Below, in pieces: positions 45,920 through 64,000 of a stretch of 64,000 nucleotides of DNA. The stretch covers positions 1,792,001-1,856,000 of the forward strand of contig OZ242296.1 in assembly GCA_965207735.1 (NCBI GenBank), read 5' to 3'. Source of the stretch: Candidatus Versatilivorator sp. Its GTDB lineage: Bacteria; Acidobacteriota; Terriglobia; Versatilivoradales; Versatilivoraceae. The translations under genes were made by a program, and so were the position numbers. Under the pieces are notes generated by a model. It saw only the letters and a program-made list of their open reading frames with translations. It had not been told where the DNA came from and searched no databases. Positions within the stretch are counted from its first letter, which is position 1; the number at the start of each line of letters is the position of its first letter.

Positions 45920-45989
45920 ACCCTGTATGCTCCGGCCCGTTGTATGGGGCGGAGGCGCTGCTGAGCAGGTACCGATACGGGATTGGTTG

Positions 45990-46357
45990 GGGCAGGTCTG
46001 TAAGCCGAATTCTGTTCCCTCGAAGAGGGCAGCGGTCATTCCTCTAGCCCGGGAGTTGCCTCCCGGATCCAGCATTCTACCCGGATGTCAAGCGGCGCGG
46101 GTCACGCCTCCATCCCTATTTGAACTTGCTCCATGTGGGGTTTGCCAAGCATGCCCGTTGCCGAGCACCCGGTGCGCTCTTACCACACCATTTCACCCTT
46201 ACCCCTTGCGGGGCGGTATATTTTCTGTTGCACTTTCCGTACCCATGGAGAACCTCCATGAGCCCCCCGCGTTACGGGGCACACTGCCCTGTGGAGTTCG
46301 GACTTTCCTCCCGCTCAATGCCTGAGCAATGAGCCGGCGACCGCTCACAACCTGCCC
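45990..46357 (-). ncRNA. rnpB: RNase P RNA (type A)
   Basis: Minus strand has GAGGAAAGTCCGAACTCC, AGTGCAACAGAAA, GGTAAGGGTGAAA, GGTAAGAGC, AAACCC, ACAGAATTCGGCTTA; P1 pairing GGGCAGG/CCTGCCC. Confidence 0.97.
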
Positions 46358-46397
46358 GACGGCATTTTAGCCCGCATTTCTCGCCAGGTCGCTTATT

Positions 46398-46632: not shown

Positions 46633-47477
46633 TCAACCGAGCCCGACAGCGGGCTGAGGCCGGAAAGGGGGACTGTCCCCGCTCCAGTCCAGCGGCAGCA
46701 GGGATTGTCGCCACAGTCCCGGCTCCAGCAATGGCCCTGCTGAAGGCGGCTTTCTTCCGAGCTGGTACCGGTCGCACAACTGGCGGATGAGATCGGAAAT
46801 CCGCTCGCGATAGATCTTCAGCCTGCCCTGTGGGAGCCCATAGAGGTCCCGGTATACCGGCACCAGCTCCGGAAATCGCTCCCGCAGAAAGGGCACCCAT
46901 ACTCGCTCGATGGAGGAGGTGACAAACAGGACCCTGGCAGCCAGATAACCCGCGCCCCGGCGCTTGACGCTGCGCACCAGTGCCTCCAGGTCGGCGGTGC
47001 CGTCGGTAATCCGAGGAAGCACCGGCATGACCAGCACCCCTGTGTTCAAGCCCGCCTGCGACAACGCCTTCAAGGCCAGCAGCCTCCGCCGGGGCGTGGC
47101 CGCCCGAGGTTCCAGGAGCCTGGCCAATTCGGAGGAGAGGGTGGTAAGAGTGATGTTGAGATGCACCTCGTTGCGGGAGGCGATCTCCCGCCACAACTTC
47201 AGGTCCCGCAGGACCAGGTCGGACTTGGTGGTCAGCGAAATGCGGAGTCCCCGCCATTCGGCCAGCCTCTCCAGCATCGCCCGTGTCAGCTTGAAGCGCC
47301 TCTCAGCCGGCTGATAGGGATCGGTGGCGGTGCCGATGGCAATGGGCCGGTCTCGCAGCCTGGCCGAAAGCAGGTCCTTTTCCAGGACGGCATCCCCCTT
47401 CCGCTTGGCGAAGATCTCGGACTCGAATTGGCCTGCATCCTCCCGGCCCATGTATTCGTGGGTATAGCGGGCATAAC
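46633..47477 (-). pseudogene. 3' part of a SplB/Rv2578c/PA0069-like radical SAM gene, cut at CxxxCxxC
   Basis: YARYTHEYM, IGTATDPYQPAE, TTKSDLVLRD, LLEPRA, MPVLPRITD; no Cys triad. Confidence 0.85.
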
Positions 47478-47497
47478 TGTCCCTTATAGATCTTATA

Positions 47498-47629
47498 CCG
47501 TCCATAGCCGTCCATAAACATCTTCTAAGACATGTTATTTCAAATATATATGTAGACTAACTGTCTAACGGCGTCCAATAGTACTGCTTGACATCCGAGG
47601 GCAACTCGGGGCAATATTGGGGGCAACTC
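47498..47629. promoter_or_regulatory. Candidate integrase arm-type sites
   Basis: CCGTCCATA x2 (47498-47516); GGGCAA x3 (47599, 47609, 47621). Confidence 0.45.
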
Positions 47630-47653
47630 AGGAGACACTACAGGCAACCCTAT

Positions 47654-48889
47654 ATGCCTCTCACCGATATTGCGATACGTCATGCCCGCCCCGGCACCAA
47701 ACCCAGGAAGATATTCGATGGGAGTGGACTGTATCTGGAAGTGGCCCCCAGTGGCGGTAGGTGGTGGCGGCTGAAGTACCGCTTCGCAGGCAAGGACAAA
47801 CGGATCTCCCTGGGCGTCTATCCCGACGTGTCGCTGAAAGAAGCCCGGCGGCGGCGTGATGAGGCCCGCCAGCTGTTGGCCAAGGCGATAGATCCGAGCG
47901 AACACCGTAAAACACAAAAAGCAGAGAGAGACCAACGCTCAAAGAATAGTTTCGAAGCCGTGGCCCGGGAATGGTTTGGCAAGTACTCCACAAACTGGGT
48001 CCCCGATCATGCGGGTCTGGTCCTCAAACGACTGGAGCGTGACATCTTCCCTTGGATCGGAGGCAAGCCAATTGCTGAGATCAATGCTCCTCAACTGCTG
48101 ATTGTCGTCCGCCGGATCGAACAACGTGGAGCCCTGGAAACTGCCCATCGGGCGCTTCGAAACTGTGGTCAGGTCTTTCGCTACGCCGTGGCTATCGGAT
48201 GTGCCGACCGCGACCCATCTGGAGATCTGCGAGACGCGTTGCCACCGGTCAAGAGAACACACTTTGCCGCCCTCACTAATCCGAAGCGGGTTGGCCCCTT
48301 GCTGAGAGTGCTGGACGCCTATGAAGGGTCACTCATCGTTCGTTGCGCTTTGCGGTTTGCACCACTGGTTTTCGTCCGGCCCGGCGAGCTCCGCCGAGCC
48401 GAATGGTCAGATATCGACCTGGAAGCGGCCGAATGGCGTTTCACCATCACCAAGACCAATACGCCGCATCTAGTTCCCTTATCCCGGCAAGCGGTAGAGA
48501 TTCTGCGCGAACTCTACCCGCTGACCGGACACGGGCGCTTTGTCTTCCCGAGTTCCCGCGCTCCGAGAGGGGACCGTCCCATGGGTACCAATACCTTTCT
48601 GTCCACCCTACGGTTCATGGGTATCGGAAAGGAGGAGATGACAGGCCACGGCTTCCGGGCCATGGCGAGAACCCTCCTGGATGAAGTGTTGGGCTATCGA
48701 CCCGACTATATCGAACACCAACTGGCCCATGTGGTGCGTGATCCTCTCGGTCGGGCCTACAATCGCACGGCTCACCTGCCGCAGAGGCGAGAGATGATGC
48801 AAGCGTGGGCCGACTATCTGGACCGGCTCAAATCCGGTGAGGTTGACACGCCGATCAGGACAACTGCCAGTCAAGGAACGTCACAGTAG
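47654..48889 (+). CDS. P4-type tyrosine integrase
   Basis: DGSGLYL/SLGVYP arm-binding domain; RPGE, HGFR, QLAH, AYNR catalytic motifs. Confidence 0.95.
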   Translation: MPLTDIAIRHARPGTKPRKIFDGSGLYLEVAPSGGRWWRLKYRFAGKDKRISLGVYPDVSLKEARRRRDEARQLLAKAIDPSEHRKTQKAERDQRSKNSFEAVAREWFGKYSTNWVPDHAGLVLKRLERDIFPWIGGKPIAEINAPQLLIVVRRIEQRGALETAHRALRNCGQVFRYAVAIGCADRDPSGDLRDALPPVKRTHFAALTNPKRVGPLLRVLDAYEGSLIVRCALRFAPLVFVRPGELRRAEWSDIDLEAAEWRFTITKTNTPHLVPLSRQAVEILRELYPLTGHGRFVFPSSRAPRGDRPMGTNTFLSTLRFMGIGKEEMTGHGFRAMARTLLDEVLGYRPDYIEHQLAHVVRDPLGRAYNRTAHLPQRREMMQAWADYLDRLKSGEVDTPIRTTASQGTSQ

Positions 48890-49388: not shown

Positions 49389-51398
49389 ATGCCATCTCAT
49401 TACTCCCCCCGAAGTTTCTTCAGGCAGGCCCCAAGAGACCTGCTCGCCCGGTACTTCGAGAGCCGCGGTTTGTCCTTCAAGCCGGACTTGGCGACCGTCG
49501 CGGATACGCCTGGGGATCCGTTGTATGCGGCCTGGCTCCAATTTCCCGAGGAGCAGCGCAACGAGATGGAGCTCGATTTTCGGGAGATCTTCAAGATGAG
49601 TTGCCGAAAGGGCGTTCAGGCTATTCTCGATGCCACGCAATCGCGCCGGGTCGACACTCCCGAAAGCGCGGGTGCTTTCATCGAGTCCCTGTCGAGGATG
49701 CCGGATCACTTCCACCGCGCAATGGCGACCTGGCTGGACCACAGGGGATGCTGGAGAGAAGCCCACCGGTTTTATGGAGGTGATGCGCCCGGTTGGTGGC
49801 GAAAGCGCAAGAACATGGGACACCGGCCGGCGGCAACCGATCCGGCCAGCCTCCGGCGCCTTGCCGACCTGATCGGCGCCTGGTTTCACCGCAGCGAAGG
49901 ACGGGGCAGCCGCTGCGTGGTGGAATCCTTCCACCGGGATGGGCTGGACTTCTATTTCGCCTACCCTGAGGACTACTCCCGGTTGAAGATGGAGTGGACG
50001 GATGGGGAGTTCAGCCCGAGACGGAGCCGGCCGGTATTCGAGGTGGTCTTCGCCTACTCGCAACGGGAGGGTTCGGTGGACCTGAGCTTCCCGGGTCCCT
50101 GCCGCGCGGTAGAACCGCTGCAGCAGATGTTCGCCAAGGCGATTCTCGGACTGGGCCGCCTGGCATCCGATCCTGCCGGCGCGCCGGTCTACGACCTCGC
50201 TCCCCTGCTCAGAAAAGACTTCGATTTCGTGTACGGTTCCGGCAGCGGGGTCGAGTCGGTAATGGTGAGGAAGCTGGGATTGGCCTCGCGGGTGCTCAAG
50301 GATTTCCGGTTCACACTGGAGCCTGGCGAGGCTTGCCCCCCCGATGACATCCACGACTATCTGCAAATGGCCGGCGCATTCGATCCGTCTCTCCTCTACA
50401 GAGTTACCCAGGCAGAGCTGGTGGCTATTCTGTCCGCTGACGGAAAAACTCCGCGCGGCAGAGTTCCGATCCACCTGGCCGTTCCGGCTTCCTGTTCGCT
50501 CGGCTACGGCGATCGGGAACTGAAGCTGCGGGAAATGGTAAGGGCCTCGGGTCTTGAGCCGGAAGGGCTCGAACGGGATCGGGACAGGAGTCCGGAAACC
50601 GTGCTGATCGATCTGGGCGCCCGTTTGTGCATCTCCCCGAACCGCAATCTCAGGATCGATTCACGGGAACTGGCCCGCTGCGCCGGCAAGGCGGTCAAGG
50701 CCCTCAAAGCCCAGAATATCCTGCGAAAGGCCCGCCCCGCCCGCAGCGCGGTGTGTCCGGGCTGCGAGCGGCATTGCCGGATGCCCGTGCACAGAGAGTC
50801 AGGGCCAGCGCGTCAAGCGACCGGGATGAAGGGTCCGGCAGCTCCTTTCATCCTGTGCGACAAGCGCGGCGACATCAACCGGGTGCCCGTAGCGGCTGAC
50901 CGGTTGACCCACTGGCAGACCGATGCGGCCAGCCTGATCCGATTCATTGCCGGCGCCCTTTCGCTGAGCGGGAGCGGCCAACGGCCACAGGAGAGGAAAG
51001 AGTTGGAAGCCGGCATGGTTTGCGGGAGGAGCCGCGGCCGGGTGGTAGGCCTGAGGATGGAGGACGAGCTGAAGCTTGTGGCGGGTTCAAGCCGATTGCC
51101 ATTTTCCAAGGTCCTGCGTTTTCGCGAGGACCGCTACGGACTGGAGGAAATGCCCGTCCGCCGCTGGCTGGACGAGGCCACCGGGGACGAGGCTCCCTAC
51201 AGCGCGAGCCGGGTCAGGTACGAGTCAAGAAAGCTCGACACCCGCAAGAAGGACCTGGCTCTTCAGAAGGCCTACCGGTCGCTGAAGCGGGAGAGGCCGG
51301 GCAGGCCTGACATCTGGTACGCGCGGCAGATCGCCAGGAGCGGGCTCGGCGGCGGACTCAGCCCGGAAACCATCCGCAAGCGGATGAAAAAAAAGTGA
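49389..51398 (+). CDS. Island hypothetical protein with Cys cluster and C-terminal HTH-like region
   Basis: 669-aa ORF with RBS; CPGCERHC...CDK; WYARQIA...SPETIRK. Confidence 0.7.
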   Translation: MPSHYSPRSFFRQAPRDLLARYFESRGLSFKPDLATVADTPGDPLYAAWLQFPEEQRNEMELDFREIFKMSCRKGVQAILDATQSRRVDTPESAGAFIESLSRMPDHFHRAMATWLDHRGCWREAHRFYGGDAPGWWRKRKNMGHRPAATDPASLRRLADLIGAWFHRSEGRGSRCVVESFHRDGLDFYFAYPEDYSRLKMEWTDGEFSPRRSRPVFEVVFAYSQREGSVDLSFPGPCRAVEPLQQMFAKAILGLGRLASDPAGAPVYDLAPLLRKDFDFVYGSGSGVESVMVRKLGLASRVLKDFRFTLEPGEACPPDDIHDYLQMAGAFDPSLLYRVTQAELVAILSADGKTPRGRVPIHLAVPASCSLGYGDRELKLREMVRASGLEPEGLERDRDRSPETVLIDLGARLCISPNRNLRIDSRELARCAGKAVKALKAQNILRKARPARSAVCPGCERHCRMPVHRESGPARQATGMKGPAAPFILCDKRGDINRVPVAADRLTHWQTDAASLIRFIAGALSLSGSGQRPQERKELEAGMVCGRSRGRVVGLRMEDELKLVAGSSRLPFSKVLRFREDRYGLEEMPVRRWLDEATGDEAPYSASRVRYESRKLDTRKKDLALQKAYRSLKRERPGRPDIWYARQIARSGLGGGLSPETIRKRMKKK

Positions 51399-51615: not shown

Positions 51616-51858
51616 ATGAACGAGATCGAATCCGGCAGGGCATTGACACCGAGAATCCTGAGGCTCCCGCTGGTCCGCGAACGCACCGGACTGTCCCGCA
51701 GCAGCATCTATATGCGCATTTCCGAGGGGCGTTTCCCCAAGCCCATCTCCCTGGGGGAGCGGGCCGTCGGCTGGCTGGAGTCCGAGATCACCGAGTGGGT
51801 GAACCGGAGGATCGAGGCCAGCCGGCAGGCAGGGCCTCGAGAGGACGGTTCCAGATGA
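51616..51858 (+). CDS. alpA: AlpA-family regulator/excisionase
   Basis: RTGLSRSSIY...GRFPKPISLGERAVGWLESEI. Confidence 0.92.
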   Translation: MNEIESGRALTPRILRLPLVRERTGLSRSSIYMRISEGRFPKPISLGERAVGWLESEITEWVNRRIEASRQAGPREDGSR

Positions 51859-54152
51859 CGGGCGCATACTTGAGCCTCTACTCACAGGACCGTCCGGAAC
51901 TGGGCCGGGGGAGCGGCGCGGAGCGCATGTGCTCCTGTCCCTCGCCCGCTCACGAGGACAGAAAGCCGAGCTGCTCGGTCCAGGTGGAATCGGGAAAGTG
52001 GTTCTGCCACGGCTGCGGGGAAGGCGGCGGCGTGGTGAAGTGGCTGAGGCTCGCCCGGGGCCTGTCGGGACCGGAAGCCCTGGAAACAGCCCGGCGGCTC
52101 GGATTGGTACCGGAACACGGAGACATCATAAACAGTTCGCGGGTGAACGGAAGACTTCAGTCCGCCCCGAACGGACAGCGGCCTTACCGCCAGCCGTGTT
52201 CCGTCGAAAACGCTCCTCCGTCCGCCCTTCCGTTCCGATGCGCCGCCTGCTACCACTACCGCGCCCCGGACGGGACCGAGTACGCCCGGGTTTACCGCTA
52301 CCCCGAGAACCGGCCTGGCCGTAAGGCCGACCCTTATTCCCTGCGCAATAGGGGAGAGCACGCGGGTACCTGGACCCACCGGGCTCCGCAGAACCGCTGG
52401 CCTTACCGCGTAGAAACCCTGACTGACGCAACCCCGGTGGTGATCGTCGAAGGCGAGAAGTGCGCCGATGCCTTGGCCGGACTGGCGGAGGGATATGGAG
52501 TGCTGAGCTGGCTGGGCGGCAGCGGCGCTGTCCTGCGCACGAACTGGGACGCCCTTTCGGGGAGGGAAGTGATCCTGTGGCCGGACGCCGACGATCCGGG
52601 GCGGGAGGCGATGGCGAGGCTGGCCGGCGAGCTGGACAGGATCGGGGCGGCCGAGGTGCTGATGATCCGCCCGGAAGAGGAGCGGACCGCCGGCTGGGAC
52701 GTGGCCGACGCCATCGCGATGGAGGGTTGGGGATGGGAGGAAACCCGGCGGTATCTCCTTCAGGCCGAACCGGTCGATCAGGAAGAGTGCCGCCGGCTCA
52801 GACGGATCGCGGAGAAGGTCCTGGTGACGGCGGAGGGAATCGATCCGGATGGGATCGACTGGATCTGGGAGCCCTACCTGCCCGCCGGGGCCGTGACCCT
52901 GATGGCCGGGGCGCCCGGTTGCGGAAAGAGCTTCCTGAGCATTGCTCTGGCAGCGGAGCTGTCCCGGGGCCTGACCCCGTTTCACCGGAAGCGGACCGGG
53001 AAGGTCCCGACGGCAATCCTTTCCCTCGAGGACGATCCGGCCCGAACGATCGTTCCCCGGCTGAAGGCCTGCGGGGCCGACCTGGGTGAGATCTTGATCT
53101 TCGACTGGCGTCATCCGGAGGCGGATTCCCTGGATACGCTGTCGATGAGGGAGGGAACGGAGGGAGAGCTGCTGCGGGTCTTGCGGGAGGGAGTCAAGCT
53201 GCACGGTCTCCGGTTGGTGATCATCGACACCCTGACGGCGTTCACTCCCGCCAGGATGGACGGGCATGAGGCCGTCGCTGTCCGTCAGATGATGAAACCC
53301 ATGGCCCGGTTCGCCTCCGATTGCGGCGTGGCGGTCCTGGTGATCTGCCACGCCCGCAAGAGAAGCAGCCATGATTCGACGCACGGGGTCCAGGCGACTG
53401 TTTTGGGAAGCGTGGACTACGTGGCCGCGTGCCGGTCGGCGCTGCTGGTGCAGAAAGACCCGAAGGCGGACGAGGGGACGGCGGGCATCATGACCCATGC
53501 CAAGTGCAATTTCGGACCGTTGGGTTCCTCGCTCTCCTTCTCGATCGGCACCGACGGCTGGAAGTGGGGGGAAGAGCGGCAGGAGTCGGCCGATGAAATC
53601 GAGGAAGCGCTGCTGGCCAGGAGGGAACACAGGAGGATGAAGGAGCGGGAGGAGAGGATCAAGGCCGGGAAGGCCGAGACGAGAGCACACATTGAAGAGC
53701 GGATCCGAACCTACATGGAGCAGTACCCGGGGGAAGAGTTTTCGACCCGGGAACTGAGAGAGAACATCGAGGTCAAAAACGACACCATTGCGGGTGTGTT
53801 GCACAAGATGATGGAGGAAAAGCAGTTGATCCGCCGCAGGAAGGGCAAACAGAAGGTGTTGTGGAGCCTTGACGGTAACGGCAAGCGGCAGCGAACAAAA
53901 GACGAAGGCAATCCCTCCAAAACCGGTCCCCGTTTCTCAACCGGTCCCCAAAAATCAGAAGAAAACGGCAAGCGGTTAGTTGCTGGGAATTCAATGACTT
54001 GCCCTGTGGAAAACAAACCGGTCCCCTTGTCTCCCCCTATATACGCGCGCGCGGGGACCGGTTTGGGGGACCGGTTTTCCACAGGCGGAGAAAAAGAGCG
54101 GAAAAAAGGAAGCGGCCAGGGTCCCCCGAAACCCAAGGGGAGATCGCCATGA
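51855..54152 (+). CDS. Primase-helicase (CHC2 Zn finger + TOPRIM + RecA-like AAA_25)
   Basis: CPSPAHED...CHGC; VEGEK, WPDADD; GAPGCGKS, VIIDTL; ATGA overlap with alpA. Confidence 0.88.
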   Translation: MTGAYLSLYSQDRPELGRGSGAERMCSCPSPAHEDRKPSCSVQVESGKWFCHGCGEGGGVVKWLRLARGLSGPEALETARRLGLVPEHGDIINSSRVNGRLQSAPNGQRPYRQPCSVENAPPSALPFRCAACYHYRAPDGTEYARVYRYPENRPGRKADPYSLRNRGEHAGTWTHRAPQNRWPYRVETLTDATPVVIVEGEKCADALAGLAEGYGVLSWLGGSGAVLRTNWDALSGREVILWPDADDPGREAMARLAGELDRIGAAEVLMIRPEEERTAGWDVADAIAMEGWGWEETRRYLLQAEPVDQEECRRLRRIAEKVLVTAEGIDPDGIDWIWEPYLPAGAVTLMAGAPGCGKSFLSIALAAELSRGLTPFHRKRTGKVPTAILSLEDDPARTIVPRLKACGADLGEILIFDWRHPEADSLDTLSMREGTEGELLRVLREGVKLHGLRLVIIDTLTAFTPARMDGHEAVAVRQMMKPMARFASDCGVAVLVICHARKRSSHDSTHGVQATVLGSVDYVAACRSALLVQKDPKADEGTAGIMTHAKCNFGPLGSSLSFSIGTDGWKWGEERQESADEIEEALLARREHRRMKEREERIKAGKAETRAHIEERIRTYMEQYPGEEFSTRELRENIEVKNDTIAGVLHKMMEEKQLIRRRKGKQKVLWSLDGNGKRQRTKDEGNPSKTGPRFSTGPQKSEENGKRLVAGNSMTCPVENKPVPLSPPIYARAGTGLGDRFSTGGEKERKKGSGQGPPKPKGRSP
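53921..54085. other. Candidate replication origin (iterons)
   Basis: AACCGGTCCCC x3 direct and x2 inverted around TATATA; inverted TTTTCCACA boxes. Confidence 0.6.
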
Positions 54153-54228: not shown

Positions 54229-54516
54229 ATGAAGTCATCTTTGTTTTCCAGCGTAGCCGTCTTTTGCCTGGGGCTCCTGCTGTTATGCCCGGGGGTGGTC
54301 TGGGCGCAGGGGACCAGTCCCTGGACAGACGCCGTGGGAGTCCTCGAAGCCGCTTTCACCGGCCCCATCGCCCGTGGCCTGTCGCTGATCGCCATTGTCG
54401 TTGGCGGCCTGATGTTCGCCTTCGGAGAAGGCGGATCGAAGAAGGCGCTGGCCGGTATCGTCTTCGGTTTGGGCATGGCCATGGGAGCGGCCAACTTCCT
54501 GGCCTGGCTGTTCTAG
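54229..54516 (+). CDS. trbC: VirB2/TrbC pilin
   Basis: SPW...FTGPIARGLSLIAIVVGGLMFAFGEG. Confidence 0.88.
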   Translation: MKSSLFSSVAVFCLGLLLLCPGVVWAQGTSPWTDAVGVLEAAFTGPIARGLSLIAIVVGGLMFAFGEGGSKKALAGIVFGLGMAMGAANFLAWLF

Positions 54517-54524
54517 GGTTTCCC

Positions 54525-54821
54525 ATGGACGGCCCGAAAATCTGGAGGGGGCATCCGACACTCAGTGCCCCCTTGAAAATGATGGGTGTCGAACGCCGCT
54601 GGTTCCTGCTGTCCGCAACGGTCGCCCTGGCGCTTTGGAACGCGATCAACTCGCTCCTTATAGGTGGCGTGATCTTCGGCGTCCTCTACACCGCCGGCCT
54701 GCTGGCCTGGAGGAAGGATCCGGCCATGCTTTCGATCCTGAAGGTCTCGGCTAGCTTCCGCGCCCGATACGACCCGGGCAAGTGGAGCAGCTTGCCCTGG
54801 GTTGTGAGAATCCGAGAATGA
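54525..54821 (+). CDS. virB3: VirB3/TrbD
   Basis: Small two-TM ORF with MGVERR and KDP, between the pilin and VirB4. Confidence 0.8.
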   Translation: MDGPKIWRGHPTLSAPLKMMGVERRWFLLSATVALALWNAINSLLIGGVIFGVLYTAGLLAWRKDPAMLSILKVSASFRARYDPGKWSSLPWVVRIRE

Positions 54822-57238
54822 ACCTGAGAGAAGAAGCCAAGGACTTCGAGGCGGCCGGTTCCCTGGCCGACGAGCTCCCCTGGTGGGGCTGGCTCCCCGA
54901 TGGCGAGTGCCTGCTGGGCCGAAACGGCAACCTCATTGCCGTCGGTCGGCTCACTCCGGCTCCCCTGGACGGCCGCGCGCCTGTCCACCTGGACCGCGTA
55001 ATCGACCGCTGGCAACGCGCCCTGTCCAACCTCGACGACAAGATGCGGCTCTATTTCTACTTTCTCCGCCGGCCGCCGGAGATCCCGAAGCCGGTAACCG
55101 ACGCCGGCGAGGTTGTGCGCCTGTCCCAGCAGCGCCGGGGCGAGTTCCTCGCCGGCCGCGTTTCAGACGTAGCCGTCTACGTTGCTTGGTGTTATGACTC
55201 GGGCCTTCAAGCAACCAGCTCCGAGGTTGACGGCGGAGTGACAACCTGGCTGCGCCAATGGATGGCCCAGCGCAAGAAGCCCAATGAGGTTGTCTATCTC
55301 CGTCGGGCCGTGGAATCAGCCGCCGAGCAGTTTCGCCAGGCGGTCTCCGCCAGCCGCGCCCTGGTCTCCGACATCACCCCCATCGAGCTGCTTGGACCGC
55401 AGGAAGGCTCCCGGGTGCTGTCCGAACTGGTGAACCGCCCCGGAACACCCTGGCGCGGAGCCACGGGCAGCGGTCTCAACTGGCAGCTCGCCGTGTCGGA
55501 GCTCGAGGCCGAGCGGCGCTTTCTTCGCTTGGACGGTGAGCGGGCGCTGGTTTATTCCATGCTGTCCCCGCCCGGGGAGGCCAAGGCCAACTTGCTGGCC
55601 GATCTTTTCCGCCTCGATGCAACCTTGACCGTGAGCCTGGAATGGAAGCGATGGGGGCTTGACGCCGCCCGGCGGAAGATCCGCAGCGCCCAGCGCCACT
55701 ACTTCTCCAAGCGCTACTCCATGGCCGCCCACATGCAGGAGACCCAGGGAACGGCCGCCGCCATGACCGATACGGCCGCCGAGGCCGAATCGAGCCGGCT
55801 CGGCAGCGCTCTTGTCGAGCTGGAGGCCGACGGTGTCTCCTACGGCTCCATAACCTGCACCGTAACTCTCCATGGCGACTACGAGCAGATCGACCACTTG
55901 GATGCCGATGTCCGGAGGATCTTCAACACCTACGACGCCAAGGTGATCCGTGAAGGCTACGGCCAGCTCCCGGCCTGGTTCTGCCGCCTGCCCGGGCAGC
56001 CCCCCGGCCGCAACGTCCGCAGCGTCTTCGCGTCCGCCGGCCTGCTGGCCTGCCTGGCTCCAGTCTTCGGAGCTTCCACAGGCAGGCCCACCAGCAAGCA
56101 CTTGGGCCGGCCGGCCCTCGCCGTTCTGGAAACCCGGAGCAAGACCCCCTACCACTACGACCTGTTCGCCGGCGACGTGGGACACACGCTCATTCTTGGC
56201 GCGACCGGCGCCGGCAAGAGCTTCACTCTCAACTTCCTGCTGGTCTCGGCCCTCCAGTACGATCCCCGCGTCCTGATTCTCGATCTGGGCGGCTCCTACC
56301 GCTGGCTCACTTCCTTCCTGGGCGGTTCCTACCTGGAGCTTTCCCCTTCCGAGAAGGGAAGCACGACTTTCAAGCTCCGGCCGTTTTCCCTGCCCCCGAC
56401 CGAGCGCACCTGCCAATTCCTGGCCGGCTGGGTAGCGCGCCTGTTGAGGATCGGCGGCGGGGAGCTGTCCGGAGCCGACACCACCGAGATCCACGACCGC
56501 ATTGCGGATCTCTACAGGCTCCCTCCAGGCCACCGGACCCTGGGCGGCCTGGTCCGCACCCTGCCCCAGAAGATGTGGCCCCCGCTGTCCCGCTGGCACG
56601 GCTCGGGAGCCTGGGGCGCGGTCTTCGACAACCCCGCCACCGATGACGATCTCGAGCTGGCCGACTGGCAGGTGATCGACCTGGCCGGCGCGGCCGAGCA
56701 CGAGGACCTGTGCGAGGCGGCCCTTTTCTACTTGCTGGAGCGCTTGCGCCTCGCCTTGGAAGACTCGGCAGAAACCGCCCGCGTCAAGCTGATGGTTGTG
56801 GACGAGGCCTGGCGCTACCTCCGCGATCCCGCCGTGCTGTCCTACCTGGCGGAAGCCGCCAAGACCTGGAGAAAGAAGAACGCCGCCCTGATCCTGGCCA
56901 CACAGTCCGCCATCGACCTTACAGGTACCGCCGGCGCGGCGGCTCTGCTTGAGTCGCTCCCGACAAAGCTGTTTCTCGCCAATCCCGACCTGCCGTCCTC
57001 GGTCGCCGAAGTCTTTCGTTTGAACGAGGAGGAGGTTGAGGCCATCCGAGGCCTCCTGCCCAAGCGGGAAATGTACCTGCGCCGCTCCGGCGAGTTCGCC
57101 ATCCTTCGCCTCGAAGTGGACCGGCAAAGCTACTGGCTTTACACGTCCTCAGCCGTGGACGCTGAAAAGCGCTCCCGGGCCGTCGAAAAGCACGGCCTCG
57201 TGGGCGGCATCGAGCACCTTGCAAAGGGGGTACAATGA
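54818..57238 (+). CDS. virB4: VirB4/TrbE ATPase
   Basis: VGHTLILGATGAGKS, VVDEAW, WRKKNA...ATQS. Confidence 0.93.
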   Translation: MNLREEAKDFEAAGSLADELPWWGWLPDGECLLGRNGNLIAVGRLTPAPLDGRAPVHLDRVIDRWQRALSNLDDKMRLYFYFLRRPPEIPKPVTDAGEVVRLSQQRRGEFLAGRVSDVAVYVAWCYDSGLQATSSEVDGGVTTWLRQWMAQRKKPNEVVYLRRAVESAAEQFRQAVSASRALVSDITPIELLGPQEGSRVLSELVNRPGTPWRGATGSGLNWQLAVSELEAERRFLRLDGERALVYSMLSPPGEAKANLLADLFRLDATLTVSLEWKRWGLDAARRKIRSAQRHYFSKRYSMAAHMQETQGTAAAMTDTAAEAESSRLGSALVELEADGVSYGSITCTVTLHGDYEQIDHLDADVRRIFNTYDAKVIREGYGQLPAWFCRLPGQPPGRNVRSVFASAGLLACLAPVFGASTGRPTSKHLGRPALAVLETRSKTPYHYDLFAGDVGHTLILGATGAGKSFTLNFLLVSALQYDPRVLILDLGGSYRWLTSFLGGSYLELSPSEKGSTTFKLRPFSLPPTERTCQFLAGWVARLLRIGGGELSGADTTEIHDRIADLYRLPPGHRTLGGLVRTLPQKMWPPLSRWHGSGAWGAVFDNPATDDDLELADWQVIDLAGAAEHEDLCEAALFYLLERLRLALEDSAETARVKLMVVDEAWRYLRDPAVLSYLAEAAKTWRKKNAALILATQSAIDLTGTAGAAALLESLPTKLFLANPDLPSSVAEVFRLNEEEVEAIRGLLPKREMYLRRSGEFAILRLEVDRQSYWLYTSSAVDAEKRSRAVEKHGLVGGIEHLAKGVQ

Positions 57239-58199
57239 TCCCAAACACCATCGCAACCATCGGCACTGGCGTCCTGACTTTCGGCCTCTGGGCTCTTGTC
57301 CTGTTCGGTGCCGACAAGGCCTCGCCGGCCGGCGAAAAGGCAGCCACTCAGCCCCTGGCGTCCTTCGCGTCCAGGCCCAACCGGACCAGATTGTCGAAGT
57401 CCGGACCAGGACCCGACACACGACGGTCCTCGTCCTGCCCCGGGGAGAAAACATCCTGGACTTCGTTGTCGGCGACTCCGACTACTGGCACCTTTCCGGC
57501 TCCGCCAACCTGGCCTATCTCAAGCCCCTCGACGAGAAGGTCCGGACCAACGTGGCTCTGGTCTGTGAAAGTGGTGCGATCTACTCATTCCTGGTGAGAG
57601 AGGCCGCCGACCCTCACCTTGTGGTGCGGATCGAAACCAAGACCGGCAACGCCGCTCCGGGCCGGCCTGCCTTTGTCGCCCGTTCGGCCATAGAGGACTA
57701 CCGGGAAATGGCCCGCGCCGCCGGCGAGGCCGCACGGGCGGCTCGCGAAGCCGCCGATCTCAGGTCCACCCGGGCCGAGGACCGAGCCGCCGGGGCCGTC
57801 AACCGGTTCAGGGCCGACTATCCCACCCGCCTGTCCTTCGCCTACCAGCTCGGCAAGAAGGCTCACGAGTGGCCCTTCCTGGTTGACGCCATGTGGCATG
57901 ACGGGCAGTTCACCTATCTCCGAAGTCGTGCCCAGGAGTCTCCCGCGATCTACGAGCTGAAGGACGGCAAGCCGAGCCTTGTCGCCTACGACCTCACTCC
58001 GGAAGGACTCTACATCGCCCGCCATGTGCTCGGGGACGGCTGGCTCCGCATCGGCAAGAAACGCGCTCGATGGCGCTTCGATCCTTCCCGCGACTTCACC
58101 CTGGCTCCCCAGAAGAAGCTCAGGCGGCTCCTGAGCGACGCCAGGCGGACCCTTGAAGGAGCCACACGCCGACCTTCCAAGGAGGAACCCAATGAGTAG
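57235..58199 (+). pseudogene. virB9: VirB9/TrbG, frameshifted near 57352-57355
   Basis: Signal peptide in the frame of 57235; body (TTVLVLP, VVGDS, WHDGQFTY) in another frame. Confidence 0.75.
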
Positions 58200-59586
58200 C
58201 CAATGGAGCCGGCTCGTTGCCAAACCCGCGGGCGCGATCCCGGGCGGCCTCTTCGGACAGATTGCCGTGGCCCTGACCACCCTGCTTATCGCCGCCTTCA
58301 TCATCGCCTATGCCATCCAGGGCGGCTCGACCGAAGAAGAACCCGAGACCACGGCCGCCGAACCCGTCCTTGCCGGCGAGGGCATCCAGCGGCGTGTGGA
58401 TCACCGCATCGAGGAACAGCGCCGGCTCGAACAGCTCCGCAAAGCTGCCCAGGCCCGCGACCGCCTGCGCGCACAAATGGAGCAGTCCCGTCCGGGCCAA
58501 CAGGCGGGCCCCGGGCGGCCTGCCACGCGCACCGCCGGCATGACTCAAGGGCGAACACCCACCGGCGGCGGCCAGCCCTACGCCGGCGACGATGCGCTCG
58601 ATGGCACGATCGACGCTGAAATCGCCGAGCAGGAGCTTCTCCAGGAACTCAGACTTCAGGCCATCCGCCGCAAGCACGAGTCGCTGCGATCGGATCCGGT
58701 CTCTCTCTCCGTCAGGCCCTCACCGGGCCAGCACCGCCCGCCCCCACCTCGGGTCGGCTCCGCTCCCCGATACGGACCGGCGCCCCGAACCTCGCCCGGT
58801 CCCGAGACCGAAAACATCCGGAATTTGCTTCAGGCCACCGAAAACCTGATCGAGCTCGAGCAACAGGCCATGACTCAAGGCACAGCCCGGCCCGGCTTGC
58901 CCGCGCAGCCAGCACTGGTGCCGGCGGGGATTCCCGCCGCGGCGGCGCAAGACCAGTCGCCGGCCCATACTCCCGAGAACCCCACCAGGGTGACTACCCC
59001 TGCCGATCCGGAAGGCTTTGAACGCATCTACGAGGGGTCGTTCCTGGAAGGCGCGCTGATTACCCAACTCTCGGGAGACTTCCCCGGGCCGGCGTTGGCA
59101 CAGGTCTCCGTGCCTTTCTACTCCAACGACCGCCAGCGCGTCCTGATCCCCCGGGGAACCCGCGCGATCGGCACGGCCCAGGCTGTAACCAACCGCGACC
59201 AGACCCGCCTCGCCGTCGGTTTTCACCGCCTCGTCTTTCCCGATGGCCGCTGGGTGTCCCTCAAGTTTGAAGGCTTGGACCAGGTGGGAACGACGGCGCT
59301 CAAGGACAAGGTGAACCGACACTACGTCCAGATGTTCGCCGCAGCGGGAGCCGTCGGCATCCTGTCCGGACTCACCCTGCAGGGCAGCAATCCCTACGCA
59401 GGAGGGCTGCAGGGTTTCCGCGCCGGCGCGGGCCAGGGTTTCGGCCAGGGGGCGACCCAAATCATGCAGCGGTTCCTGAATCGCCTTCCGACAATCACGA
59501 TCCGCGCCGGCCATCGGCTCCGGATCTGGTTTACCGCCGATGTCCTGGTACCGGCAAAGGCTGATCCACAGGCGCCGAGGTTCTGA
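58192..59586 (+). CDS. virB10: VirB10/TrbI
   Basis: TM, Pro-rich linker, VLIPRGTRAIG, DQVG...DKVNRHY, PTITIRAG. Confidence 0.9.
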   Translation: MSSQWSRLVAKPAGAIPGGLFGQIAVALTTLLIAAFIIAYAIQGGSTEEEPETTAAEPVLAGEGIQRRVDHRIEEQRRLEQLRKAAQARDRLRAQMEQSRPGQQAGPGRPATRTAGMTQGRTPTGGGQPYAGDDALDGTIDAEIAEQELLQELRLQAIRRKHESLRSDPVSLSVRPSPGQHRPPPPRVGSAPRYGPAPRTSPGPETENIRNLLQATENLIELEQQAMTQGTARPGLPAQPALVPAGIPAAAAQDQSPAHTPENPTRVTTPADPEGFERIYEGSFLEGALITQLSGDFPGPALAQVSVPFYSNDRQRVLIPRGTRAIGTAQAVTNRDQTRLAVGFHRLVFPDGRWVSLKFEGLDQVGTTALKDKVNRHYVQMFAAAGAVGILSGLTLQGSNPYAGGLQGFRAGAGQGFGQGATQIMQRFLNRLPTITIRAGHRLRIWFTADVLVPAKADPQAPRF

Positions 59587-59630
59587 TTCTCGATGCTGAA
59601 CACCAATTCAAATCCTGAAAGGAGGAAGCC

Positions 59631-60524
59631 ATGCAGTGGAAACGAATGGGAGTGATAGCCCTTAGCGTGGTCCTGGTTGCCGCGCCGGCCAGCGCGATCC
59701 CCGTCACCGATCCGGCCGCCATCGCGCAGCGAATCACCATGATGGCCAACCAGGTCTCGATCATCACCAACCAGTTGACCCAGATCCAGCAGTTCTCGGA
59801 CAAGCTCACCGAAATGAGGGACCAGGTGAGCCATCTCAAGGAGAAGGCGCTGGGAGCCTACCATTCCCTCACTTCCCCCTTCACCAGTTTGATTTCGGCA
59901 AGGACCGAGCTGGTGGGAACGGGCATGAGCTGGGTCAGTGAATTTCAAGGGACCGCCGCGCAGCTCGCCGACACCTACAAGGACCTGTCCGATGGCGTGT
60001 CCGTCCGGGGAGGATGGGACGGCCTGCTTCAGACGGCGGATACCGTCACCGAGACCGACCTGGTTGACATCTTCGTCAACCTGCCGGCTGGAGTCGGCAG
60101 CCGCGCCGGAGACCTATTCCGGCAGCAGCGGGAATCGGCCGACCGCCAGCGGGTGCTCGATCACGCCTTGGCCGATGCTTCCGGTACTCTGATCGAGTCC
60201 CTGAAGGAGGCTCAGGACGCCCTCGACAGGGTGCGGAACCAAACCGAAAAGTCCGATACCGCCCTGGCCCAGGCCAACATCACGGCCATTGCCACTCAGG
60301 CGGAGCTGATGGCCGCCCTGGCCCAGCTTCAGGCCTACCAAAGCGCCCGCGAGGCGGGCGCAAGCTATGAGCGCGAGCTGGCCCGCCGGCAGGAATTGGA
60401 GCGATGGGCCGCCGTTCTCCGCCAGTCCGAGCAGGACTTTCAGCAGGCTCAAAACGAAATTGCCGCCCTGCCGGATACCGGCGGCCGGGAAGTCCAGTTC
60501 ACCATCCATCCCCACTACCAATAG
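59631..60524 (+). CDS. VirB5/TrbJ-like
   Basis: Signal peptide, IPVTDP, helical Gln-rich body; position in the operon. Confidence 0.75.
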   Translation: MQWKRMGVIALSVVLVAAPASAIPVTDPAAIAQRITMMANQVSIITNQLTQIQQFSDKLTEMRDQVSHLKEKALGAYHSLTSPFTSLISARTELVGTGMSWVSEFQGTAAQLADTYKDLSDGVSVRGGWDGLLQTADTVTETDLVDIFVNLPAGVGSRAGDLFRQQRESADRQRVLDHALADASGTLIESLKEAQDALDRVRNQTEKSDTALAQANITAIATQAELMAALAQLQAYQSAREAGASYERELARRQELERWAAVLRQSEQDFQQAQNEIAALPDTGGREVQFTIHPHYQ

Positions 60525-60547
60525 CGCTCAGCGCCAGGGAGTAGCCG

Positions 60548-61519
60548 ATGCCGCAGCTTACGCCAGTCACGATCCCCCCGGGGGAGGAGTGGGACGCCAA
60601 GCCGTTTTTCGACCAGGTGCTTGCCGAACTCATAGGCAATGGCGCGCCGGCAATGCAAACCGCCGGCCTGGCGATCTGGACCGGCATGGCCACCGTCATG
60701 ATCGTGTGGACCGGACTGAAGACCGCCTTCTCCGGCGATTACGACATGTGGGAGATCGTCAAGCTCGTAATCGGCCTGGGTATCCCACGGACGATGCTGG
60801 CCTTCTACGACACGCCCCTTCCGGGGACCACCATGAGCTTCCCCATGCTTATCACCGAGCAGGGCGCCTGGGCCACCAACGCCTTTATCGGCGATGCCTG
60901 GAAAGACGCCGCCACCACCCTGACCGGGGCCTACAACCACGTCTTCACTCAACTCACGGACGCCATCCGCAGCTTCGGCTATACCGATGTCTTCACCAAG
61001 GGCATTTCGTTTCTCATCGCTTCGGTCCTGGGCGGCACGTTCATGGCCATCGTTCTGGTCCTGCTGCTGCTGATGTTCTGCCTGCTCATGGCTCAGGTCA
61101 TCTGGGCGCAGTTCGCCCTGGCGGTCGCCATTCTGATCGGTCCCATCCTGATTCCCTGGATGGTCTTTCCCCCCCTGAGCTTCCTCTTCTGGGGCTGGTT
61201 CCGCACCCTGTTGACCTACACCTTCTACGGCGTCATTGCCGGGGCGGTCTTCAACATCTTCATGAACGTGGGGCTGGCTTTCCTCGACAGGCTGATCACC
61301 GTGACCTTGACCTTCGAGGACCTTTCCGGAGTGTTTCGCTGGTATCTCATCCTGTGGCCGCTGATCATCTCCGGCATCCTGGCCTCCCTGAAGGTGGGCG
61401 AGCTGGCCCAGTTGCTGGTTTCGGGAGCCGGCAGCGCGAGTGCGGGCCTCGGGACGCGAGTGCGCCAGGTCGCCATGGCCGCAAAGAGTGGCGGCGCATC
61501 CCTGGCCGTGGGGAGGTAG
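60548..61519 (+). CDS. virB6: VirB6/TrbL
   Basis: Polytopic membrane protein with GPILIPW...LFWGW. Confidence 0.85.
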   Translation: MPQLTPVTIPPGEEWDAKPFFDQVLAELIGNGAPAMQTAGLAIWTGMATVMIVWTGLKTAFSGDYDMWEIVKLVIGLGIPRTMLAFYDTPLPGTTMSFPMLITEQGAWATNAFIGDAWKDAATTLTGAYNHVFTQLTDAIRSFGYTDVFTKGISFLIASVLGGTFMAIVLVLLLLMFCLLMAQVIWAQFALAVAILIGPILIPWMVFPPLSFLFWGWFRTLLTYTFYGVIAGAVFNIFMNVGLAFLDRLITVTLTFEDLSGVFRWYLILWPLIISGILASLKVGELAQLLVSGAGSASAGLGTRVRQVAMAAKSGGASLAVGR

Positions 61520-61522
61520 ACG

Positions 61523-62197
61523 ATGAAAGCAGACAAGCAGGACGCCGGCAGACAGTTTGCCGACATTTGGGCTGAGGCCGTGCAGTCCAACCGCAACCTC
61601 CGCATCATCACCGTGGCTCTTGGCATGAGCCTATTCCTGGTCCTCGTCATCACGCTCCGCCTGGCCTGGCAGCCGCCTCCCAAGCCTATCGTTGTCCGCG
61701 TCGATGAGGTCGGCCGGGCCGAGGCCCTGGCCTATGAGGCGGCGACCGCCAAGGCCGATCCCCTCGACCCCACCACCAAGTATTTCCTGAACCGCTTTAT
61801 CCACGACTTCTATTCCCGAAGGACCGCGACCGTCCATGACCACTGGACGCGCAGCCTTCGCTTTCTCACGACCAACCTGGCCGACAAGGCCTTTGCCGAT
61901 TCGAGCGAGCGGATTGCCCTGGTCTCCGGTGGCTTTGCCAAGCACGAGTCCCAGGTTGAAAGCGTCGTGCTGCGGATTCACGCCGCCGAGGAGCCGCCGC
62001 ATGGAGCCACGGCGGATTTCGACCTGGTCACCCTCGCCCGCGAGCAGGAGGCCGAACGGCAGCGCTGGTCCCTGTCGCTCAAGTTCGTTTTCCTCCAGGA
62101 CGTTCCGCCCGAGCTTGTCGTCTTCAACCCCATGGGGATCATGATTACCTATCTCCAGGCCGACCGGGCGCTGGTGACCGACGAGAGGAACCGATGA
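61523..62197 (+). CDS. virB8: VirB8/TrbF
   Basis: TM, VVRVDEVG, C-terminal NPMGIMIT. Confidence 0.88.
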   Translation: MKADKQDAGRQFADIWAEAVQSNRNLRIITVALGMSLFLVLVITLRLAWQPPPKPIVVRVDEVGRAEALAYEAATAKADPLDPTTKYFLNRFIHDFYSRRTATVHDHWTRSLRFLTTNLADKAFADSSERIALVSGGFAKHESQVESVVLRIHAAEEPPHGATADFDLVTLAREQEAERQRWSLSLKFVFLQDVPPELVVFNPMGIMITYLQADRALVTDERNR

Positions 62198-63141
62198 AGT
62201 TTCCGCACCTGCAGGGCCGCGAAAAACTGCTGGAGCCTCTTGGCTTCACCGGCCTCCAAGCTGAGTGGATCACTCTGGTATGTCTCCACTCCGGACTGTT
62301 CACCCGGGACCAGGCGGAGGTGTTCTTGGGAACCAGCCAGCCCACAGCGTGGCGCTTCACTCAGCAACTGCTCGATGCGCGACTGTCTGGCCGGCCAGTA
62401 GCGGTCGCCTCTATGACTGACGGCCGCCCTATTTGCCGGATCTTCGGCAAGTCCATCTACCGGGAACTGGGAATTGCCAACGTCCGTCACCGCCGGGACT
62501 CGTCGGTTGAGGTTACCCGGCGGAGGCTTCTGTCGCTCGACTTCGTGCTCGACCATCCGGACCTGCCCTGGTTGCCCACCGAGCAGGAAAAGGTTGCCTG
62601 CTTCGAGCAGCTCGGTATTGACCCCGAACTGCTGCCGAAACGAATCTACGCCGGCCGTGCCAACGGCCGTGTCCGCTACTTCCACATCAAGATGCCCGTG
62701 GCCGTCGAGCGGGACCGGGCCGTTTTCACCTACATCGACCCCGGCATGGGAACCCGGAGTGAACTGGACTCCTGGGGAGCCGCCCACCGGCAGCTTTGGG
62801 AGAAGCTCCGAAAGTCCGGCCGCCGTGTCGAGGTCGTTGCGGTTGCATGGGAGCAGCGCCTTTTGGACCGCGCCGAGCGAGTGCTGCAATCCTGGACGGT
62901 CCGGGACATGAGTGAGGCCGAGATAGAACTTCTCACCCTTCGCCAGGCAGTCGCACAGGCCGATGTGGACACCGTTGAACGCTATGGCGGCCTTAATGCC
63001 GCCCTCAAGAAGATCAATCAGCTCGCGCAGGAAAGCCCGGTGTCAAATGGCCGCGGAATGATCGACGATTTCCTCCTCTGGGGGTCACGGCGGTGCCGCC
63101 GTATGGGTGAATACTTTACGGAGACCAGGTTATTCACGTAG
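62194..63141 (+). CDS. T4SS-linked hypothetical protein (wHTH-like N-terminus)
   Basis: ATGA overlap with virB8; HSGLFTRDQ, LLSLDFVL, YIDPG. Confidence 0.75.
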   Translation: MKFPHLQGREKLLEPLGFTGLQAEWITLVCLHSGLFTRDQAEVFLGTSQPTAWRFTQQLLDARLSGRPVAVASMTDGRPICRIFGKSIYRELGIANVRHRRDSSVEVTRRRLLSLDFVLDHPDLPWLPTEQEKVACFEQLGIDPELLPKRIYAGRANGRVRYFHIKMPVAVERDRAVFTYIDPGMGTRSELDSWGAAHRQLWEKLRKSGRRVEVVAVAWEQRLLDRAERVLQSWTVRDMSEAEIELLTLRQAVAQADVDTVERYGGLNAALKKINQLAQESPVSNGRGMIDDFLLWGSRRCRRMGEYFTETRLFT

Positions 63142-63483: not shown

Positions 63484-64000
63484 ATGAAGACCTGGAGACA
63501 ACTCATTCTCGTCAACCTGGCCTTGGCGGCCGTGGGCCTTCGGGTGTGGCTCGATCCCTTGCCGGCCCCGGGCGAGGTCGCCCTGCTTGACCTGATTCAC
63601 GCCACCGATCCGCTCATGTACGCCATCATCGCGGCCGTCCATATCGTCACGCCAGGCCTCGCCGTTATTCTTGCCGGCCTGCTTTCCCTTTCAATCTGGC
63701 GGATATGGCTGGCCCGCTGGCTCCAGGTCGAGGCGGCTCCCCCTACCGGGAGCCTTCCGCCCTGGCCGACCACGCCACAGGATGATTCCCTTTCTCTTGT
63801 CTTCGGCGAGGTCCACCATCCCATCGAGCCGCGCGAGGCTCCCCGGCCGGAGTGGCTCGTCATTCCCGAGCGGGGCCTTTACACCGGCATTTCCATCTTC
63901 GGGGCTGTCGGCAGCGGCAAGACCAGCGCCTGCATGCATCCCTTCGCCGAGCAACTCCTGTCCTGGGCCGCCGACGATCCGCGCCGGCGGGCAGCGGCCC
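63484..64000 (+). CDS. Type IV coupling protein (VirD4/TraD-like), 5' part
   Basis: Read from the sequence (absent from the ORF track): MKTWRQLILV..., two TMs, IFGAVGSGKTS Walker A; open to the window end. Confidence 0.85.
   Translation, partial: MKTWRQLILVNLALAAVGLRVWLDPLPAPGEVALLDLIHATDPLMYAIIAAVHIVTPGLAVILAGLLSLSIWRIWLARWLQVEAAPPTGSLPPWPTTPQDDSLSLVFGEVHHPIEPREAPRPEWLVIPERGLYTGISIFGAVGSGKTSACMHPFAEQLLSWAADDPRRRAAA

Follow-up and report, generated by a model that had tools for sequence, protein, structure and literature searches.

A 43.8-kb ICE-like element interrupts the only Rv2578c/PA0069-like radical SAM gene of a single-contig, 5.26-Mb genome (G000), which contains the window, i.e., the whole stretch of 64,000 nucleotides that was analysed. 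The element begins inside the window and runs past its end to G000:C1 1883268. This arrangement is probably the work of a retargeted P4-type integrase that uses the conserved Fe-S-motif codons of the sole gene of this family as a landing site, exit of the element being an unregulated by-product. According to this account, the ICE-like defence island would have inserted just past the third Cys codon, likely by means of its own P4-type integrase, which would have shifted from tRNA 3' ends to a conserved coding motif. The crossover would take place at a 7-bp overlap and AlpA would drive excision. When precise, excision would make the gene whole again, though likely just now and then, as a side effect of the life cycle of the element and not as a regulated switch; two lineages would have been hit independently. 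The account draws on both gene halves and both junctions, an in-frame rejoin, a natural empty allele, a second lineage with the insertion, and an integrase that is nested among its kin and has a changed helix. The coordinates of the features are listed in Table 1.

The split gene and the element within it

The minus-strand ORF in the window opened with a Cys-free leader of 10 codons, MDGIRSIRDS, and then resumed at YARYTHEYM; this had been seen in an earlier inspection of the letters alone (the sequence-only reading) and was borne out by the reading frame. The ORF matched the PA0069 and Rv2578c NCBIfam models only from profile position 75–79 on. A six-frame scan of the 5.26-Mb genome returned a single match to the NPYxGCxxxCxYC-type motif, 43.8 kb away, which was the 5' half of the gene. 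Both the minus-strand 5' half and a repeat of the core, which the sequence-only reading had proposed to look for beyond position 64000, were thus present at the far end. The 5' fragment carried the whole CxxxCxxC motif, followed by a short AT-rich, element-derived tail and a stop.

Because the 5' part retains all three cysteines, the gene is cut just after the third Cys. The perfect 9-bp block at the junction extends from the second base of the third Cys codon to the first base of Arg68, and since the crossover is confined to this block (47469–47477), the whole CxxxCxxC (residues 58–65) falls in the 5' fragment. The proposed position of attB, in the codons around the third Cys, fits this block well. 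The related claim that the gene is cut at its Fe-S motif holds for the motif codons; the CxxxCxxC itself is unbroken and stays in the 5' fragment. Each version of the 14-bp junction occurred once in the G000 genome, and the arm-type repeats were alike at both ends of the element. The integrase, noted earlier as starting about 175 bp away and pointing outward, has its ATG at 47654, 177 bp from the core, and faces away from the gene. The RNase P RNA gene (window 45985–46358, minus strand) lies directly downstream of the target gene.

In-silico removal of 43,793 bp produced a stop-free frame of 345 codons with the Cys motif at 58–65, giving the in-frame rejoin on which the sequence-only reading had depended. 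The rejoined frame was 84–91% identical to nine near-full-length orthologues from the genus, 88% to a partial tenth and 73–76% to two more, and it aligned without a gap opening to 10 of these 12 genus orthologues and with one gap opening to the other 2. No second copy of this gene family was present elsewhere in the G000 genome. The split and the lack of another genomic copy support the earlier view that the gene is dead when the element is integrated; judged from its reading frames, it would be inactive in the integrated state and would become whole once the element has left precisely. The native promoter would yield no more than the 76-aa fragment, and for the 3' part no promoter was detected; the strain is therefore predicted to be without the enzyme. 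Separate production of the two halves, followed by their assembly into an active enzyme, would mean that the gene is not dead after all, but this is very improbable. The 5' fragment does keep three Cys under the native promoter and the 3' part does have an in-frame ATG, but this ATG looks incidental because it lies within arm-type repeats common to tRNA-targeting kin, and no sigma-70-like promoter facing the 3' part was found at 47300–47800.

The target has the NPYxGCxxxCxYCYAR motif and a radical SAM core, and the named members of its protein cluster were Acidobacteriota. An intact orthologue scored 236 against the curated cut-off of 430 for NF038135 and 240 against that of 360 for NF033668, below both, and by these profile scores the target is a related subfamily, not an equivalog member, of Rv2578c/PA0069. 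SplB was absent among the NCBIfam matches of the intact orthologue, which also had no SplB match among PDB sequences at E up to 1.

As in an ICE, an integrase and att repeats at both ends are combined with VirB4, a coupling protein and mating-pair genes. No relaxase was identified in the element, in which candidates of 315 and 329 aa had no Pfam or NCBIfam match. The 315-aa ORF (window 62194–63141) had four full-length and many partial genomic copies, about 68% identical, scattered over the genome, and may itself be mobile. The 669-aa ORF had no match in Pfam, NCBIfam, PADLOC or ESM Atlas, and the ORF at the VirB5 position among the type IV secretion genes had none in Pfam. The defence cargo included a complete Hma system, with a HEC-01 pair, a TrlF-like ATPase and a Schlafen-domain gene set between its genes. 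A sister element of about 38.9 kb (G000:C1 ~2126104–2165040) sits at tRNA-Ser; its integrase is 78% identical to that of the 43.8-kb element, and it also has a homologue of the 669-aa ORF.

Table 1. Features of the split gene, its junctions, the element and the predicted operators (window positions unless a G000:C1 or locus position is given).
Feature	Position	Strand	Remarks
3' part of split Rv2578c/PA0069-like radical SAM gene	46633..47505	-	host-derived up to 47477; leader is element arm DNA
5' part of the gene, 76 aa	G000:C1 1883233-1883463 (window-relative 91233-91463)	-	past window end; six-frame motif scan
Integrase-side junction core, 14-bp direct repeat with 1 mismatch	47464..47477	.	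perfect 9-bp block 47469-47477
Predicted 7-bp overlap	47469-47475		inside perfect 9-bp block
Partner core copy	G000:C1 1883257-1883270 (window-relative 91257-91270)		past window end
Element arm	47478..47653	+	10-bp-period repeats from 47500; GGGGCAA-type repeats ~47597-47628, as in tRNA-targeting kin
Far-end arm repeats	G000:C1 1883175-1883200		
P4-type tyrosine integrase, 411 aa	47654..48889	+	Pfam PF13356, PF22022, PF00589
669-aa ORF	49389..51398	+	53%-identical partial copy in sister element
AlpA-family protein, predicted excisionase	51616..51858	+	Pfam
Primase-helicase-like protein (CHC2 zinc finger, AAA_25)	51795..54152	+	Pfam
Type IV secretion genes	54229..62197	+	TrbC/VirB2, VirB4-like ATPase, VirB9 (CagX), VirB10 (TrbI), VirB6, VirB8
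VirD4-like coupling protein, start	63484..64000	+	continues past window
VirB11, RepB primase, ArdC, HicAB	L001:5520-12814		past window
Defence cargo: HmaA, TrlF-like ATPase, Schlafen-domain protein, HmaB, HEC-01 pair, HmaC	L001:13123 to L002:11133		
Predicted LexA2 operator in target promoter	G000:C1 1883471-1883488		upstream of 5' part
Candidate LexA2 operator GCGAAT-N5-GCGAA, period 11	G000:C1 2698664, 1454228, 1883488; L257-L268		upstream of lexA2, imuA-imuB, radical SAM gene

The integrase and its choice of target

The integrase contained the catalytic residues R242, K267, H332-x-x-R335, H359 and Y369, and its arm-binding, core-binding and catalytic domains with R-K-H-R-H-Y are those of the P4-type (IntSXT/P4 cluster). 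Its kin show the insertion at tRNA or tmRNA 3' ends, with the target restored, that characterizes this type, whereas the target here is a coding sequence. In a quick tree of 91 rows, restricted to integrases of at least 59% identity and 380 aa, the integrase fell in a 14-member clade from the genus (SH-aLRT 99). Twelve of the 13 other members had readable flanks, and all 12 were at tRNA-Ser, -Ala, -Arg, -Met or tmRNA; the kin at tRNA ends were 74–78% identical to the integrase studied here.

Residues 310–322 of the integrase are MGTNTFLSTLRFM, compared with MSENAVLAALRRM or a close variant in the kin, and G311, T318 and F321 occurred in 0 of 90 aligned kin. Since the integrase is nested among tRNA- and tmRNA-targeting relatives yet has a unique helix at 310–322, it was likely retargeted. 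We take this helix to be the core-DNA recognition helix, from its place before the HxxR motif, as in Cre and XerD, and as such it would set target specificity. An alignment-based model placed a helix at 312–321 with low confidence (pLDDT about 50) and had a poor catalytic domain; a single-sequence model of the integrase reached a pLDDT of 36, and lambda Int was matched weakly in a profile search. Among 120 homologues the helix recurred in one (P0122, 90% identical), and also in its cluster mate P0242; both fall in one 90% cluster with the integrase studied here. In Longimicrobiales, other changes in helix 310–322 went with non-tRNA sites in 11 loci (L197, L201, L208, L232–L234, and L243–L247), which are a second, independent set of retargeted integrases. 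The integrases of L243, L245, and L247 appear to be inserted in the VirD4-like gene of another conjugative element.

The spacing of the core differed as well, with 31 bp to the first arm repeat compared with 21 bp for the sister element, in which the final 15 nt of tRNA-Ser, at its 3' end, are duplicated. Two geometries were rejected, namely a crossover of the kin in the tRNA T-loop, as the sister element (the one element available for this point) duplicates only those 15 nt, and an overlap at a kin-like distance, as the core here is separated from the arm repeats by 10 bp more than its counterpart there.

This extra distance of about 10 bp would fit a single old off-target insertion, made by a tRNA-type or relaxed-specificity integrase, then fixed, and inherited or spread by homologous recombination, with the element largely stuck in place. 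We consider such a history unlikely. It would be consistent with the finding that 0 of 109 related integrase loci, and 0 of 79 further, partly overlapping loci, lay beside this gene family, and with three integrase changes near residues 181–194, positions at which the residue of P0122 matches the consensus or comes close to it. A tRNA remnant, however, was absent at both ends of the 43.8-kb element, the changed helix was identical in proteins that are 10% divergent elsewhere, and the element was much less diverged than its hosts, a closer strain (X7, below) being empty. Under lenient tDNA settings, 92 of the 109 loci were labelled, 10 were unlabelled and 7 were without a flank; some of the labels are loose, and the statement on the targets of the kin relies only on the 12 genus loci. 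The set of 79 comprised 53 tDNA loci, 16 others and 10 without a flank.

A retargeted integrase remains the probable account, and on this account one can trace how a tyrosine integrase came to a new target. The tRNA-using kin are 74–78% identical, and the change can be localized to a single short helix. Swaps of this helix would therefore put the specificity code of P4-type integrases to the test, a point of relevance to integrase engineering.

Occupancy of the site, target promoter and excision

The site was uninterrupted in 12 of the 13 genus genomes, the remaining one (G012) having only a fragment at a contig end. Sequence spanning the empty site, which the sequence-only reading had suggested seeking, was found in sequencing run X7. 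One of its contigs tracked the 5' half (9 differences over 264 bases) before continuing into the 3' half, where 29 of the 30 letters listed matched window 47434–47463. X7 therefore shows the unoccupied site as it occurs naturally in a closely related strain.

Both junctions are also present in a second lineage. In runs X3 and X5, from a different study than runs X1 and X2 (probably the source of the assembly), one contig extended across the integrase-side junction, and in X3 one contig also extended across the far junction. The X3 host resembled G002, with which it shared 15 of 16 and 30 of 38 of the listed differences. On the integrase side, with G002 as a proxy, about 86 of 97 differences lay in the host part (929 bases), compared with about 11 in the element part (964 bases). 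The far end had 5 differences in 176 element bases vs. 17 in 264 host bases. Since the two lineages differ much less in the element than in host DNA, the element appears younger than the host split, and its low divergence across hosts suggests transfer. From the G002 proxy and the listed differences, we infer transfer followed by separate insertion at the same site in the two lineages, the only two seen with the insertion.

Split copies were absent among 150 listed of 291 matches in 401 genomes of the phylum, and from 400 genomes of the class searched with junction DNA (two candidates scored per genome). N-terminal fragments broken at the same codon numbered 0 in the best 120 of 349. A 17-nt junction pattern had 2 matches in viral contigs, neither of them near an integrase or a radical SAM gene, and phage records contained only distant homologues of the intact orthologue. 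Several candidates were discarded: two-piece matches near residue 78 in G141, G161, G176, G181, and G201 were in-frame loop insertions, those in G432, G454, and G578 were frameshifts and not splits at the attB codons, and X6 had an unrelated paralogous piece only. The target homologue of G365 had an interruption of about 2.4 kb near residues 150–173 (L157/L162, G365:C8 850210–853272), and was not split at attB. The sequence-only reading had held that related integrases at unrelated targets would speak against it. Nearly all the kin are indeed elsewhere, at tRNA or tmRNA ends, and the expectation of a shared target survives in one case, the near-identical element at the same site in the other lineage.

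In all 12 readable genus copies of the target, a direct repeat of period 11 was located between the -35 box and the start codon. In all 12 readable genomes the same repeat also preceded lexA2 (score 16.5–19.5), whereas it preceded lexA1 in none of the 12; a further copy was located upstream of an imuA-imuB-like pair. An operator common to a lexA promoter and to other SOS genes is the mark of a LexA (SOS) regulon, and the predicted operator here has this distribution. Because its promoter repeat is also upstream of lexA2 and imuA-imuB, the target is probably an SOS gene, and it would be repressed by LexA2. The LexA-type box in the target promoter is indirect support for a link to DNA damage. 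The motif score derives from the promoter of the target itself, which makes the top rank of the target site circular, and the genome-wide motif scan is unspecific by itself since several other sites score as high. The start codon lay 6–7 bases past the likely -10 region in all genus copies (L002:13464–13494), which suggests a leaderless transcript of the target.

A promoter of this kind could serve a damage-gated switch, in which damage would raise excision and lift LexA2 from the target promoter, and re-integration would reset the gene; the sequence-only reading had proposed a functional switch with possibly damage-induced excision. The box in every readable target promoter and lexA2 copy, and at imuA-imuB, would suit it, as would the LexA ChIP peak reported for Rv2578c in Mycobacterium tuberculosis (PMC3381160), the stop-free state of both gene halves, and the presence of AlpA and of the integrase catalytic motifs. 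On the side of the element, however, nothing found links excision to damage. A motif scan of the element revealed no strong SOS box at int or alpA and 19 weak matches compared with 13.5 expected, the best of which (17.5) lay inside the primase gene, and the element contained no Peptidase_S24, HTH_3 or Peptidase_M78 regulator. In X1 and X2, both junctions were crossed by unbroken, identical contigs with no branch among the loose ends listed, and neither a circle nor an empty junction occurred in these contigs, whose depth was 7–10 and from which rare forms are dropped.

The relatives of the gene also speak against such a switch. Most kin keep it intact and unswitched, and 6 of 30 genomes of the family had no match to it. 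The dN/dS between G000 and G002 was 0.31, whereas 36 other pairs had a median of 0.15 (range 0.09–0.21), which hints weakly at relaxed selection. The G002 orthologue (L013, G002:C1 4688493–4692161) carries two changes, A67T in the YAR motif, within the predicted 7-bp overlap, and a frameshift close to codon 287; these may represent decay, an excision scar or an assembly error. Taken together, a damage-gated switch is quite unlikely. The same doubt applies to a two-key gate, in which a tRNA-targeting P4 integrase would have gained a new recognition helix for the Fe-S codons of an SOS-regulated gene and the enzyme would be made only with LexA2 cleaved and the island excised, so that the host would trade anti-phage cargo against damage repair in each cell. 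Unregulated exit from a landing site remains the preferred reading, and the filled and empty natural strains represent a knock-out pair for an SOS-linked enzyme family.

Comparison with known systems

In regulated gene integrity, or active lysogeny (sigK, comK), a gene is inactive with the element in and whole after precise excision. The same inactive/whole logic applies to the split radical SAM gene, whereas regulation and a benefit to the host are without support here.

The Streptomyces phage Samy is reported to insert in a radical SAM gene of the Rv2578c family, inactivating it in its native host, with basal excision seen; its authors treat a repair function as speculative and advise caution against the SplB label (bioRxiv 10.1101/2025.02.27.640095; PMC12924846). 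As described there, Samy has in common with the present element the target gene family and the inactivation of the gene. It differs in being a phage with a serine integrase, whereas the integrase here is a P4-type tyrosine recombinase and belongs to an ICE-like island of an Acidobacteriota lineage. The closest case found of an ICE in a DNA-repair gene was ICEEa1, which disrupts mutY of Elizabethkingia anophelis; according to that report, the mutator phenotype is documented, and an excision switch is proposed, not demonstrated (PMC5458099). By the same description, ICEEa1 has a CTnDOT-like integrase, a short T-run and heteroduplexes, whereas the core here is of the homology type.

In its Arm-DNA-bind_3, Phage_int_M and Phage_integrase domains, AlpA and arm repeats, the element resembles CP4So and CP4-57 as these have been described (PMC5148205, PMC8138268), AlpA being the reported excisionase of CP4So (PMC5148205). 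It differs from them in its coding-motif target, which is unrestored on integration, in having no tRNA fragment, and in helix 310–322. No P4-type integrase at the Rv2578c/PA0069 family was found in the literature searched, which lay outside the published gene-integrity target lists and the Samy att table.

The intein model NF038136 has its insert (profile ~79–334) at orthologue residues ~65–67, a few codons from attB. An intein-bearing enzyme is functional after splicing, unlike the product of a gene with the integrated element. The island thus adds a further, independent type of selfish element to the Rv2578c/PA0069 family, after a serine-integrase phage and an intein, and as several kinds of selfish element strike this family, its Fe-S codons appear to be a recurrent landing site. 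Among these systems, the present case is one of gene-disrupting integration, in which the gene is a landing pad more than a switch.
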